Source: Gammaproteobacteria bacterium
GTDB taxonomy: Bacteria > Pseudomonadota > Gammaproteobacteria > Steroidobacterales > Steroidobacteraceae
Length of the DNA: 64,000 nucleotides
Assembly: GCA_005878095.1 (NCBI GenBank)
Contig: VBNH01000072.1
Location: 20,553 to 84,552, forward strand
Reading direction: 5' to 3'
Part shown: one piece after another, positions 1,368 through 32,898 of the stretch
Numbering within the stretch: the first letter of the stretch is position 1
Layout of the letters: each line of letters opens with the position of its first letter
Program-made: the position numbers and the translations under genes
Notes under the pieces: generated by a model
Told to the model about the DNA's origin: nothing
What the model saw: only the letters and a program-made list of their open reading frames with translations
Databases searched by the model: none

Positions 1368-1652
1368 GTGGCGATACGGGGGTTCAGGTGTGCCGACACG
1401 CAAGAGCTTTTCGAGACAGGAAGGTCACAACGGTTCGGGGCCATCCGCAAGCCCGCGACCCGAAAGCTCGGAATGCTCGATGCCGCGACAGTACTGCAGG
1501 ACTTGGCGTCGCCACCGGGAAACCGGCTGGAGCCGCTAACCGGAGATAGAGCAGGACAGCACAGCATAAGGATCAATCGACAGTGGCGCGTCTGCTTTGT
1601 GTGGACCGAGGCGGGTCCGGTAGACGTTGAGATAAGCAACCACTACGACTAG
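1368..1652 (+). CDS. higB: HigB toxin (RelE/ParE superfamily, plasmid maintenance system killer family)
   Basis: 94 aa. The motifs ...ATRKLGMLDAATVLQDLASPPGNRLEPLTGDRAGQHSIRINRQWRVCFVW match the HigB pattern as I recall it. The gene ends 15 nt before its antitoxin gene, in toxin-first HigBA order. Confidence 0.85.
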   Translation: MAIRGFRCADTQELFETGRSQRFGAIRKPATRKLGMLDAATVLQDLASPPGNRLEPLTGDRAGQHSIRINRQWRVCFVWTEAGPVDVEISNHYD

Positions 1653-1667
1653 GACATAGAGAGAGAC

Positions 1668-1982
1668 ATGGCTTTCAAGAACGGAATGCGGCCGGTACAC
1701 CCCGGCGAGGTGCTTCGCGCGGAGTATCTCGAGCCATTGGGTTTGAGCGCGAACGCGCTCGCCAAGGCTTTGCACCTCTCGCCCTCGCGCGTCAATGACA
1801 TCGTTCTGGAGCGTCGCGGAATCACGGCGGACACCGCAGTGAGGCTCGCGCGCTACTTCAACAGCAGCGCGCAGTTCTGGCTCAACCTGCAGTCCGCGTA
1901 TGACCTTCGCGAGGCAGAGCTATCCGCGAAAATGCGCAAGGTTGTGCGTGAAATTGAGCCGCGCGCGGCAGAGGTCGCCTGA
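1668..1982 (+). CDS. higA: HigA antitoxin (XRE-type HTH, VapI family)
   Basis: 104 aa. HPGEVLRAEYLEPLGLSANALAKALHLSPSRVNDIVLERRGITADTAVRLARYFNSSAQFWLNLQSAYDL is the classic HigA/VapI HTH signature. Confidence 0.9.
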   Translation: MAFKNGMRPVHPGEVLRAEYLEPLGLSANALAKALHLSPSRVNDIVLERRGITADTAVRLARYFNSSAQFWLNLQSAYDLREAELSAKMRKVVREIEPRAAEVA

Positions 1983-1995
1983 ACAGGGCTGCCCG

Positions 1996-2793
1996 TTACG
2001 TTCTGACGGCTTCATAGTCGGCGCCGCCTGAACTCGAGACGACGTCCCAAGTCTCGGCGAGGAGCTGCGGCAGAACACTGCCAGATGGGCCCCGAATCGC
2101 AACGCTCACCGACCCATCGAGATCGGTAGGATTAGGGTTGATCTGCAGAGTCGTGGCGCCAGCGGCGATCGCGATCTCCGGCAGCGACGCCGCCGGGTAA
2201 ACCAGCGATGAGGTCCCGGCACAGATGAGCACATCGCAATCCTTGGCTGCTTCACGGGCTGCTGCCCACGTCGGGCCAGGCAGGCTCTCGCCGAACCACA
2301 CGACTCCGGGCCGAATTCTGGCTCCGCACGTATCACAGCGCGGCGGCTCGATTCGCGCGCCGCCTCGCGGCAGCTGCGGGATCCCGTCAGGAAAGACATA
2401 GGGTCGCCTGCACGCTTCGCAATAAGGCCGCGCCAGCTCGCCGTGCAAATGCAGGACCGCCCGGCTCCCGGCCCGCTCATGTAAGTCATCCACATTCTGG
2501 GTAATGAGGGTCAGCCGGGGCACACGGTCTCCCATGGCGGCAATCGCAAGGTGACCGGCATTGGGCTTGGCGGCGCGCACAGCCGCCCGGCGCGATTCGT
2601 ACCAGCCCCACACAAGAGCTGGATCGCGTTCAAACGCAGACGGCGTAGCGAGGTCTTCTGCTTTGAAGGTTTCCCACAGGCCGGTCTGCTTGTCGCGAAA
2701 CGTCGGCAAGCCGCTCTCGGCAGACACCCCGGCACCTGTCAGGACGACGACCCGCTTCGCGTCACGCAGTGATTTGATGATCCTCTCGTCCAC
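1996..2793 (-). CDS. cobB: NAD-dependent protein deacylase, Sir2/CobB family
   Basis: Motifs GAGVSAESGLPTFR, QNVDDLHERAG, a Zn ribbon CEAC...CDTC, and VVWFGE. I set the start at the in-frame GTG at 2793. The ORF-track N-terminus (to 3000) runs through the tRNA-Leu 3' exon and intron and is not credible. Confidence 0.85.
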   Translation of the reverse strand: MDERIIKSLRDAKRVVVLTGAGVSAESGLPTFRDKQTGLWETFKAEDLATPSAFERDPALVWGWYESRRAAVRAAKPNAGHLAIAAMGDRVPRLTLITQNVDDLHERAGSRAVLHLHGELARPYCEACRRPYVFPDGIPQLPRGGARIEPPRCDTCGARIRPGVVWFGESLPGPTWAAAREAAKDCDVLICAGTSSLVYPAASLPEIAIAAGATTLQINPNPTDLDGSVSVAIRGPSGSVLPQLLAETWDVVSSSGGADYEAVRT

Positions 2794-2843
2794 AGTGCTC
2801 GGCTCAGTTACACCGATGACGGGCCGCAGCCGGCTGCGGCGAA

Positions 2844-2879
2844 TTTGTGGTGACCGCGGGCCGCGCGGTTCTCCACAAA
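2844..2879 (-). terminator. imperfect GC-rich hairpin immediately 3' of tRNA-Leu (possible terminator or processing signal)
   Basis: Minus-strand reading: TTTGTGG-AGA-ACCGCG-CGGCC-CGCGGT-CA-CCACAAA, starting 2 nt after the tRNA discriminator base. It is followed by a perfect 18-nt palindrome GCCGCAGCCGGCTGCGGC (2823-2840). There is no clear U-tract. Confidence 0.35.
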
Positions 2880-2880
2880 A

Positions 2881-3202
2881 TGCCCGAGGTCGGAGTCGAA
2901 CCGACACGCTTTTAAGGGCGGCGGATTTTCCTGCCACTTCGGCTTTCGCCGCCCCGGGCAGAGCACCCGCCAGGGTTCGTGGTCTGGAGCACGCCTTCAC
3001 CGTGGCCTTCTAGGCCGTAGGTGCCCGCCGTCTGCTCTCTACACCTTCCCTCGCGCTTGCGAAGGCTTGGCTCGGCATCAGCTCGAAGGCGAACCGCTCA
3101 GGGCCTTCGCCGAGTTTGACGGGCTTCACCTCGGGGATTTCTCCGCGAGGGCTCAAGTCGTTGGTCTGAGTCCGCTGCGTCTACCAATTCCGCCACTCGG
3201 GC
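2881..3202 (-). tRNA. tRNA-Leu(CAA), interrupted by a group I intron
   Basis: Minus-strand 5' exon GCCCGAGTGGCGGAATTGGTAGACGCAGCGGACTC (3202..3168). 3' exon AAAATCCGCCGCCCTTAAAAGCGTGTCGGTTCGACTCCGACCTCGGGCA (2929..2881). Joined exons give an 84-nt tRNA: acceptor GCCCGAG/CTCGGGC, discriminator A73, Leu-type D arm, anticodon stem GCGGA/TCCGC with loop CUCAAAA, long variable arm, and T arm GTCGG-TTCGACT-CCGAC. CCA is not encoded. Confidence 0.8.
2930..3167 (-). ncRNA. group I intron, IC3-like (tRNA-anticodon-loop type), 238 nt, no ORF
   Basis: The minus strand contains blocks close to the Azoarcus tRNA-Ile and cyanobacterial/plastid trnL(UAA) introns as I recall them. These are a UUGAGCC guide region, a P2-like hairpin CCUCGCGGA-GAAA-UCCCCGAGG, GUCAAACUCGGCGAA, GCCGAGCCAAGCC, and GAAGGUGUAGAGAGCAGACGG. 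The 3' hairpin is CGGC-GAAA-GCCG, and a terminal G (2930) precedes the AAAAUCC exon. Confidence 0.8.
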
Positions 3203-3342
3203 GCCGAGTGTTCATTCCCGTTGGAAACCGGGCGCGCAGCAGTATAGGGCCGCGCGCCCGCGAAGGGTATGCGCCCGGCGCAGGTGTCGGCGGCGGCGGG
3301 AGCAGTGCGACCTTTTGCCCCGCTCGCGCATCTAAACAACCC

Positions 3343-3924
3343 GTGACCCGACTGGCGGAAATCACCGTTCCCCACGCGGTGCTGGCGCGAGCGTGCGCGG
3401 GGGATGAGCAGGCGCAGGGGGCGATTTATGCCGCCGTGGCGCCCGCAACCCTCACCCTGATCCGGCGCATCGTGGGGCAGCGAGCGATGTCAGAGGACCT
3501 GTTCCAGGACACGATGATGACCTTCTACGAACGCCTGCCGCAGTTTCGCGGCGAGGCCCCGCTCGGGGCGTGGCTGCGGCAGATCGCGATTTCCCGCTGC
3601 CTGATGTACCTGCGTTCGCCGTGGAGGCGTTTGTGCCTGTCCCTGGACCCGGCTGACTTCGGGATGAGCGCCGCCGCGGCTGCCCTGGTGACGCAGGACT
3701 ACCGGGGCGAATCCATCGACCTCGAGCGCGCCCTCGCCACGCTCGCACCCACGGCACGCGCGGTCGTGTGGATGTACGAAGTGGAGGGTTACTCCCACCA
3801 GGAGATTGCCTGCGCCTTCGGGCGCACCGTGAGCTTTTCCAAGTCGCAGCTCGCGCGCGCGCACCTGCGGCTGCGTGCCTGGCTCGAGCCGCAGGGAAAC
3901 CGCCCGTCATGCACCCTGATCTAG
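3343..3924 (+). CDS. ECF (sigma-70 family, group IV) RNA polymerase sigma factor
   Basis: Region 2-like FQDTMMTFYERLPQFRGEAPLGAWLRQIAISRCLMYLR and region 4 HTH VVWMYEVEGYSHQEIACAFGRTVSFSKSQLARAHLRL. Start placed at the in-frame GTG at 3343, because the ORF-track start at 3067 lies inside the tRNA-Leu gene. Confidence 0.8.
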   Translation: MTRLAEITVPHAVLARACAGDEQAQGAIYAAVAPATLTLIRRIVGQRAMSEDLFQDTMMTFYERLPQFRGEAPLGAWLRQIAISRCLMYLRSPWRRLCLSLDPADFGMSAAAAALVTQDYRGESIDLERALATLAPTARAVVWMYEVEGYSHQEIACAFGRTVSFSKSQLARAHLRLRAWLEPQGNRPSCTLI

Positions 3925-4433
3925 ATCGCGAGCGCTCGCTCGCCCGCCGCCTGCGCGAGTTGCCCGAGGAGGCGGCGCAGCCGTACGGCTGGCGTGAATT
4001 TCAACGCCGTTCGCTCGCGCGTACGCGCCCCGCACAGGGGCTCGCCGGCGGCCGCGCGGTCGCCACCGCCGGTGTGCTCGCGCTCGGCGTCATCGCGGTG
4101 TGGGCGCGCCTGGGCGGTTGGTCCCCGCAGCCCGCGCGCCCGCAGTCCGCGCTCACAGCACCTTTGCCCTCGAGCGCGGCCGGGCACACCGCCGCCATGG
4201 AGCGCTGGTTGGCGAGCCTGCCGAGTGAGCCGGCCGTGGTACACGTGGGTACGCGCGCAGCGGTGACCGGGCTCGAGGATCGCATCGCGCAGGTCGATGA
4301 CCTGCTCAGTGCCGAGCGCCTGGATCAGGCCCATCCGGCGCGGCTGCTGGCCCTGCAGCAGGCGCGCACGCGCCTGGTCGGAGCGCTGGTGCAGGTGCGT
4401 TACGCGGAAACCCTGGCCGATGAGTCGCGCTGA
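3909..4433 (+). CDS. putative anti-sigma factor (single-pass membrane protein)
   Basis: ATG at 3909 overlaps the sigma gene end by 16 nt. One hydrophobic span (AVATAGVLALGVIAVWARLGG) follows a short charged N-terminal segment. The call rests on position and topology only. Confidence 0.55.
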   Translation: MHPDLDRERSLARRLRELPEEAAQPYGWREFQRRSLARTRPAQGLAGGRAVATAGVLALGVIAVWARLGGWSPQPARPQSALTAPLPSSAAGHTAAMERWLASLPSEPAVVHVGTRAAVTGLEDRIAQVDDLLSAERLDQAHPARLLALQQARTRLVGALVQVRYAETLADESR

Positions 4434-4448
4434 AAGCGAGGAGCGAAC

Positions 4449-7651
<3,203 letters not shown>

Positions 7652-32805: not shown

Positions 32806-32898
32806 GGAGAGGTACCGAAGCGGTCATAACGGCGCCGACTCGAAATCGGATGGTCGGGTAAAACCGGCACGTGGGTTCGAATCCCACCCTCTCCGCCA
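32806..32898 (+). tRNA. tRNA-Ser(CGA), CCA encoded
   Basis: GGAGAGGTACCGAAGCGGTCATAACGGCGCCGACTCGAAATCGGATGGTCGGGTAAAACCGGCACGTGGGTTCGAATCCCACCCTCTCCGCCA. Acceptor GGAGAGG/CCTCTCC, loop CUCGAAA, long variable arm, T loop TTCGAAT. Closely resembles E. coli serU-type tRNA. Confidence 0.9.

Follow-up and report, generated by a model that had tools for sequence, protein, structure and literature searches.

Does a tRNA-Leu gene whose group I intron lacks the wobble pair at its 5' splice site still give rise to a tRNA? Few features of group I introns are as conserved as the U.G wobble at this site, which is a textbook determinant of splice-site recognition. The question is raised by a locus in a contig of a Steroidobacteraceae bacterium (Gammaproteobacteria; GenBank assembly GCA_005878095.1, contig VBNH01000072.1, positions 20,553 to 84,552), the whole analysed stretch of which (64,000 nucleotides) is called the window below. 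The minus strand of the window at 3202-2881 carries a tRNA-Leu(CAA) gene that is split between C34 and A35 by an insert of 238 nucleotides (nt; 3167-2930), with the layout GCCCGAGTGGCGGAATTGGTAGACGCAGCGGACTC / 238 nt / AAAATCCGCCGCCCTTAAAAGCGTGTCGGTTCGACTCCGACCTCGGGCA. The last base of the 5' exon (position -1) is C34, at 3168, and in the place of the near-universal U(-1).G wobble, C3168 and G3154 form a Watson-Crick pair. We put at roughly 0.8 the probability that this gene is interrupted by an IC3-type group I intron of the type named Leu.3Cg, which would splice from C(-1) and yield a working tRNA. The parts of the gene to which the argument refers are the following:

3168..3202, minus strand: 5' exon, comprising the acceptor 5' strand, the D arm, the anticodon-stem 5' strand and C32 U33 C34 (from the sequence and from ARAGORN with introns allowed)
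2930..3167, minus strand: group I (IC3-type) intron of the Leu.3Cg type, 238 nt, starting with AG and ending with the omega-G 2930 (from covariance model R1 and 87% identity to a published seed)
2881..2929, minus strand: 3' exon, comprising A35 A36 A37 A38, the anticodon-stem 3' strand, the long variable arm, the T arm and the acceptor 3' strand
3152..3170, minus strand: P1, with the pairs C3170-G3152, U3169-A3153, C3168(-1)-G3154, A3167(+1)-U3155 and G3166(+2).U3156

The 5' exon is composed of GCCCGAG (acceptor), GUGGCGGAAUUGGUAGACGC (D arm), GCGGA (anticodon-stem strand) and C-U-C, and the 3' exon of AAAA, UCCGC, the long variable arm, the T arm, CUCGGGC and the discriminator A (2881). Once joined, the exons form a cloverleaf with a long variable arm, A73 and intact stems. 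With introns allowed, ARAGORN reported tRNA-Leu(caa), placing an intron of 238 nt between gactc and aaaat, and it returned tRNA-Leu(caa) again for the joined exons. A search with the joined sequence over 5,426 E. coli genomes matched one tRNA-Leu gene per genome, the one with an anticodon loop that reads CAA. These results confirm the split tRNA-Leu(CAA) with a 238-nt intron at 34/35 that had been described in a first-pass annotation made from the sequence alone, and they supply the tRNA call on joined exons that this annotation had proposed as a check. With default settings, ARAGORN and Rfam missed the Leu(CAA) gene, the sole tRNA reported in the 64-kb window being tRNA-Ser(CGA) at 32806-32898.

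The identity of the insert was established with a covariance model. A core pattern, GAGCCAAGC...GAAGGTGTAGAGA, was scanned over contigs of one genome per species and matched at least 120 loci, with a split tRNA in 103 of those listed. The model, R1, was seeded with 24 bacterial introns that have U at -1 and come from tRNA-Leu(UAA), Arg(CCU), Ile2(CAU) and Thr(GGU); Leu(CAA) introns and their sisters are excluded from the seeds. In the 64-kb window R1 found a single match, at 2930-3171 on the minus strand, which is full-length and scores 129 bits (E-value ~3e-39).

The closest described type is that of Williams (bioRxiv 2020, doi 10.1101/2020.01.27.920355), who catalogued 72 "Leu.3Cg" introns with a C(-1):G pair in Proteobacteria. 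The intron in the window is 87% identical over 231 aligned bases to the seed Bba346.Leu.3Cg of that work, and 71-81% identical to the Leu.3Ug and Azoarcus-type seeds. It exhibits the features that define Leu.3Cg, namely a tRNA-Leu host, insertion after the third base of the anticodon loop, C(-1) and G as omega, and it shares with the type the tRNA-Leu(CAA) host, the 34/35 site, the C(-1):G pair within a CUCAG/UUGAG P1 and the variant P7. Nothing essential differs, except that the copy in the window has no encoded CCA. The locus is thus a well-preserved new example of a type catalogued in 2020. The first-pass annotation had called the intron an IC3-type relative of the tRNA-Leu(UAA) and Azoarcus introns, which model R1, the fold and the seed identity corroborate, but it had overrated its novelty: a Leu(CAA) host of which it was "not aware" is recorded in those 72 cases, together with the same question about the C-G pair, and group I introns can hardly be called rare in proteobacterial tRNA genes, since most of the at least 120 core-pattern loci are proteobacterial.

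The cyanobacterial and plastid tRNA-Leu(UAA) introns and the Azoarcus tRNA-Ile(CAU) intron have the same P1-P9 architecture, the GAAA loops on P2 and P9 and the cores, with identities of 71% (Sel1, Leu) and 77% (Aol6, Ile2) between the seeds of Williams and the intron in the window. They differ in having U(-1).G and a P7 of the type ACUA/UAGU. The cyanobacterial intron occupies the same 34/35 site, as the first-pass annotation had stated for trnL(UAA), whereas the Azoarcus intron sits after position 36. The nearer sisters are the tRNA-Leu(UAA) introns with U(-1) in L020, L025, L031, L045, L050, L064, L092 and L104 (Leu.3Ug), which share the site, the UUGAG guide, the core and the P7, and are 81-87% identical to the nearest C(-1) introns outside P1, but have the U34(-1).G wobble and start with GA (or AA), while the C(-1) introns start with AG.

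The predicted secondary structure comprises the helices P1-P9, of which P2-P9 were drawn by hand and are listed here with what an alignment of 97 sequences reveals about them:

3129..3150, minus strand: P2 hairpin with a GAAA loop at 3141-3138; 8 of 9 pairs change on both sides in the 97 sequences
3118..3123 with 3029-3024, minus strand: P3, forming a pseudoknot with P7; 99.8% of cells paired, 5 of 6 pairs never vary
3072..3113, minus strand: P4-P5 domain, with P4 3113-3108 paired to 3077-3072 and P5 at 3104-3081
3107-3105 and 3080-3078, minus strand: J4/5 (AAG) and J5/4 (UGA), the strands of the P4/P5 internal loop
3043..3071, minus strand: P6 (3071-3069 with 3045-3043) and P6a (3065-3059 with 3054-3048); 5 of 6 P6a pairs compensatory
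3033..3039, minus strand: P7 5' strand, G-A(bulge)-GAGCA, pairing with UGCUCC 2991-2986; the guanosine-binding helix, invariant in the 97 sequences
2998..3029, minus strand: P3 3' strand (3029-3024) and P8 (3023-3020 with 3001-2998; inner stem 3016-3013 with 3007-3004)
2930..2991, minus strand: P7 3' strand to the omega-G, with P9 (2982-2979 with 2937-2934), the P9a hairpin and P9b (2951-2940)

The P1 loop lies at 3165-3157 and the internal guide sequence, UUGAG, at 3156-3152. The cores quoted in the first-pass annotation were all found (GTCAAACTCGGCGAA, GCCGAGCCAAGCC and GAAGGTGTAGAGA-GC-AGACGG), and so were the GAAA caps that it placed on P2 (3141-3138) and on a P9-like hairpin (P9b, 2947-2944). 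The intron ends, as claimed, in G: the omega-G, G2930, is its last base, and every one of the 98 distinct introns described below ends in G.

The relatives come from two samples. The core-pattern genome sample, which is unbiased with respect to P1, contains at least five further proteobacterial Leu(CAA) introns with C(-1), in Bordetella tumbae (L015), Achromobacter (L101) and three Steroidobacteraceae metagenome-assembled genomes (MAGs; L039, L044, L099), and a sixth in a MAG labelled Coriobacteriia (L066). A metagenome scan with an exon/P1 pattern, which fixes GACTC and TTGAGCC and is free elsewhere, matched at least 120 loci, of which 99 listed are further Leu(CAA) genes of the form CTC/...g/AAAA; among the matches listed there are 98 distinct introns, the window included, with a pairwise identity of 70-99%. 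All 97 introns searched with model R1 gave full-length matches with scores of 110-158 bits. The same P1 is present in the seed of Williams and in each of the seven C(-1) sequences whose selection did not depend on P1. The earlier pairing of CUC/AG with UUGAG, with C34(-1) in a Watson-Crick pair with G3154, is therefore upheld by the sequence and by these seven.

For the structure test, 97 sequences (89 with C(-1) and the 8 sisters) were aligned to the model and compared with the hand-drawn P2-P9, including the P3/P7 pseudoknot. Of 5,235 cells, 95.8% are paired in this structure, as opposed to 31-41% when the partner columns are shifted by 1-3 positions. At 22 pairs both partners have changed, and in none of 500 shuffles were values as high as those observed obtained. 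To some extent the alignment follows the structure built into the model, but that structure does not contain P6, P7, P9 or the outermost pair of inner P8 (174:213). Covariation is found in P2, P6a, P8 and P9. Together with the R1 match, the test supports a catalytic core of P3-P4-P6-P7-P8 with the P3/P7 pseudoknot, and the comparative fold of P1-P9 that the first-pass annotation had suggested comes out in its favour. In the other 96 sequences 144 columns are conserved to 95% or more, and at every one of them the copy in the window agrees.

The tRNA has been maintained along with the intron. Its stems covary across the intron: in the anticodon stem, the two halves of pair 28:42 lie on opposite sides of the intron and were left free by the search pattern, and this pair is C:G in 61, G:C in 20, U:A in 10 and A:U in 4 cases, and among the genes of the 98 listed introns the anticodon stem is perfect in 97 and the acceptor stem in 92. 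In many soil beta- and gammaproteobacteria, purifying selection acts on the intron as well as on the tRNA. The compensatory changes in the fold, the covariation of the tRNA, the conserved columns and the conserved gene order argue strongly that ribozyme and tRNA are both in use; from this pattern of conservation the intron is very probably functional, and since selection acts on both parts, the gene most likely yields a working tRNA.

By analogy with the family, we infer self-splicing and the exact ligation junction. The pre-tRNA would fold the P3-P8 core, and the last three bases of the 5' exon, C32 U33 C34, would pair with GAG of the guide in P1. A free guanosine bound in P7 would attack the bond after C34; the omega-G (2930) would then take the place of this guanosine, and the 3'-OH of C34 would attack the bond before A35, giving a product whose anticodon loop would read CUCAAAA. 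Exon and guide are joined by only 3 bp, a length also seen in the cyanobacterial tRNA-Leu(UAA) intron, and it is probably the anticodon stem that keeps the two exons together. Self-splicing of the cyanobacterial Leu(UAA) and Azoarcus introns was reportedly demonstrated by Xu et al. in 1990, by Reinhold-Hurek and Shub in 1992 and by Zaug et al. in 1993. An extension of P1 into the anticodon stem (G-5 and G-6 with CC) was considered and set aside: such a helix would compete with P2 and contain an A.C mismatch.

Several points weigh against the view that this is a natural C(-1) splicer with a working product. Rfam RF00028 (Intron_gpI) has no match in the window at the gathering score, and none in 2700-3400 (701 bases) even at E<=10. 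P3 and P7 are invariant within the clade, which reveals constraint but no covariation. As the 92 metagenome relatives were selected by a pattern, they say nothing about conservation of the C-G pair, and the sample unbiased for P1 amounts to only 7 sequences plus the seed of Williams. A73 of the tRNA in the window is followed by TTTT (2877-2881, minus strand), so that no CCA is encoded and maturation would need a CCA-adding enzyme. E. coli leuX is non-essential, and tRNA-Leu(CAA) may be dispensable where tRNA-Leu(UAA) reads UUG, in which case weak or slow splicing could be tolerated. Beyond the preprint of Williams, the searchable literature yielded no natural C(-1) group I intron, no splicing test of Leu.3Cg, no RNA data and no paper that cites the preprint. 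Finally, a U-to-C change at -1 inactivates the Tetrahymena intron (Williams, doi 10.1101/2020.01.27.920355).

The strongest alternative that these points suggest is an impaired gene or pseudogene, in which the C-G pair would stop splicing at its first step, the precursor would stay immature, and UUG codons would be left to tRNA-Leu(UAA) or another tRNA-Leu(CAA). It can draw on the Tetrahymena result and on the statement in the same preprint that splicing of Leu.3Cg "needs testing" (doi 10.1101/2020.01.27.920355), on the missing CCA, and on the fact that such redundancy occurs: in L231 an intronless tRNA-Leu(CAA) lies 2.2 kb from the intron-bearing one. The CCA is likewise absent from the two closest relatives (L164, L225) but is encoded in the genes of 76 of the 98 listed introns, and also in the tRNA-Ser(CGA) of the window, and its absence looks like a recent loss. 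A dead gene, however, would not be kept as this one is. The 98 distinct introns, at 70-99% identity, retain every helix with compensatory changes, the 97 searched are all matched by the model over their full length, the acceptor and anticodon stems covary across the intron, the copy in the window is free of deviations at conserved columns, and the gene order is conserved. We therefore regard impairment as unlikely.

A second possibility is that splicing uses the neighbouring register CU/C...CAG/GAAAA, which would keep U at -1 and produce a Leu-type tRNA with the anticodon GAA. For the window alone this register is formally acceptable (a 7-nt loop, U at -1, a G at the end of the intron), ARAGORN accepts the product with the anticodon gaa, and the assertion of the first-pass annotation that only one register restores the loop is, to this extent, incorrect. 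Comparison leads us to reject it: the base that would serve as omega varies among the 98 listed introns (A in 40, G in 26, C in 21, U in 11), U33 pairs with A3153, hence no wobble would be gained, and the product would insert Leu at Phe codons. Such splicing is highly improbable, and on comparison of the aligned sequences C34/A35 is the only conserved register.

That the insert is not a group I intron at all, as the silence of RF00028 at the gathering score and at E<=10 and a minimum free energy (MFE) z-score of only -0.42 might suggest, is refuted by the match to model R1 (E-value ~3e-39) and by the structure test, which supports P1-P9 with the P3/P7 pseudoknot, the more so as RF00028 fails to find the U(-1) sisters too.

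The failure of RF00028, which the first-pass annotation had named as a check, was calibrated on 14 loci at the gathering score. Arg, Ile2 and cyanobacterial introns were detected in L002, L007, L013 and L086 (L002 and L007 being also seeds of model R1), but RF00028 missed L015, L020, L025, L039, L044, L099 and L101 in addition to the window, that is, the clade of beta- and gammaproteobacterial Leu introns with P7 AGCA/UGCU regardless of whether -1 is U or C. It also missed one further U(-1) tRNA-Leu(UAA) intron and one tRNA-Ile2 intron among those tested. There is no bacterial sequence among the 12 RF00028 seeds (Williams, bioRxiv 2020, doi 10.1101/2020.01.27.920355). Because U(-1) sisters are missed as well and the seeds are not bacterial, we read the negative as a limit of sensitivity and not as a refutation. 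The MFE z-score, for its part, is uninformative for a G+C-rich RNA, and the MFE fold still recovers P1, P2, P6a and P9b.

Thus, of the three options that had been left side by side in the first-pass annotation, the natural C(-1) splicer is the best supported; a different P1 register has no conserved alternative to offer, and an impaired gene is at odds with the maintained fold and tRNA stems.

The comparison also offers one lead on how the C-G pair might be accommodated. In group I introns the wobble pair of P1 is recognized by a receptor located in the 3x3 internal loop that separates P4 from P5 (PMC2219692). A cryo-electron microscopy paper on the Azoarcus intron contains no text on the wobble. 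In all 89 of 89 C(-1) introns J4/5 is [A/G]AG and J5/4 is U-N-A (middle base A in 42, G in 34, C in 13), while in all 8 of 8 sister U(-1) introns J4/5 is AA[A/C] and J5/4 is CAA. The Coriobacteriia-labelled L066 has AAG/UCA, most of its nearest relatives AA[A/C]/C[A/G]A. G at the third position of J4/5 is present in only 3 of 39 tRNA-Leu(UAA) introns among the matches listed, and the combination [A/G]AG / U-N-A allows a possible extra G.U closing pair. The idea that AAG/UAA is unique to C(-1) introns had to be rejected, as about 22 of the 86 other U(-1) tRNA introns listed, mainly of the fMet type, have AAG/UAA. The contrast holds only within tRNA-Leu introns, where there are few independent origins. 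We suggest only tentatively, and with more doubt than confidence, that a re-tuned wobble receptor could be the cause that makes the C(-1) introns efficient natural splicers.

The relationships of the C(-1) introns are indicated by P7, in which AGCA/UGCU differs from the ACUA/UAGU of other tRNA introns by two compensatory pair changes and is common to at least 8 tRNA-Leu(UAA) U(-1) introns of beta- and gammaproteobacteria. A rough neighbour-joining tree places the U(-1) sisters within the C(-1) introns, with L092 (Variovorax, U(-1)) nearest to the C(-1) introns of the Bordetella group. The mature tRNA-Leu(CAA) of Bordetella/Achromobacter is 91% identical to the tRNA-Leu(UAA) of Cupriavidus, with the same variable and T arms. 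Judged from these sequences, the C(-1) lineage groups with the tRNA-Leu(UAA) introns of beta- and gammaproteobacteria, and it probably originated either through mutation of U34 to C in a duplicate of an intron-bearing Leu(UAA) gene or through transfer between tRNA-Leu paralogues. Either event would convert U.G to C-G in one step.

The tRNA-Leu(CAA) gene in the Coriobacteriia-labelled MAG lies at L066:2412-2723. Its C(-1) intron, CTC/at...g/AAAC, has the standard P7, a different guide context (TTGAGTG) and, as given above, AAG/UCA at the receptor. Provided that the MAG was binned correctly, the intron lies outside Proteobacteria, and it seems to represent a C(-1) lineage of separate origin.

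L231:1446-3995 contains the intron-bearing tRNA-Leu(CAA) at 1446-1760 (plus strand) and the intronless one at 3911-3995 (minus strand). A phage-type integrase gene at 2699-3808 (minus strand) abuts the 3' end of the intronless tRNA-Leu(CAA), and the intron-bearing copy may belong to an island that was inserted at the resident tRNA-Leu(CAA) gene.

Upstream of the tRNA in the window there is one further candidate element:

3241..3246, minus strand: TATACT, a -10-like box (from the upstream sequences of relatives; its promoter role is putative)

The (C)CTATACT box is kept upstream of the tRNA also in L039, L044, L099, L137, L155 and L205, with a variable spacing, of 38 nt in the window and of 10-17 nt in several relatives. 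The box is a likely -10 element; a scan for consensus promoters did not flag it.

Analysis of the genomic neighborhood showed that two of the listed open reading frames (ORFs) extend over the locus. The first-pass annotation had considered both extensions spurious, and the domain boundaries agree: in ORF 1996-3000 (minus strand) the Sir2 domain begins only at residue 89, and in ORF 3067-3924 (plus strand), which encodes an extracytoplasmic function (ECF) sigma factor, sigma-70 region 2 begins at residue 121, indicating an N-terminal over-extension. The region is flanked by tgt (queuine tRNA-ribosyltransferase; 6530-7651, plus strand) and by the gene of a Sir2-family deacetylase (1996-2793, minus strand), and the listed ORFs 5039-7651 and 1996-3000 over-extend the tgt and Sir2-family genes at the N terminus. 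An ORF of 846 aa (3921-6461, minus strand) separates the ECF sigma-factor gene from tgt; it has no Pfam match, and its exact sequence is absent from the protein collection. Homologs of it (35-90% identity) occupy the corresponding position in many related contigs. Among the matches listed, an ECF sigma-factor gene adjoins the tRNA in 51 loci and tgt in 41. The sigma-factor neighbor is common to the three Steroidobacteraceae MAGs (L039, L044, L099), with tgt also in L099, and the exons in the window are identical to those of L039. The shared gene order suggests a related, Steroidobacteraceae-like gammaproteobacterium as the host.

Two further observations concern the core pattern itself. L024 contains two matches to it on opposite strands within 600 bases (5632-5663, plus strand; 6137-6167, minus strand). 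L079, a MAG labelled Methanosarcinaceae and hence archaeal, also matches, with no split tRNA called; archaeal matches have been suspected to be mis-binned (Williams, bioRxiv 2020, doi 10.1101/2020.01.27.920355).

For annotation, the consequence is that the gene escapes Rfam as well as tRNA finders run at default settings, while ORF callers cover the locus with false N-terminal extensions, and the tRNA genes of the Leu intron clade with P7 AGCA/UGCU will be missing from standard annotations. If the coupling to the receptor is causal, these introns would provide a natural group I ribozyme that recognizes a Watson-Crick pair at its 5' splice site. A large, maintained family with the C-G pair poses the question, raised in 2020, of how such a ribozyme can locate and activate its splice site when the wobble is absent. 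To this question the present locus adds an intact example, evidence of the spread of the family and of selection on it in soil beta- and gammaproteobacteria, and the receptor positions.

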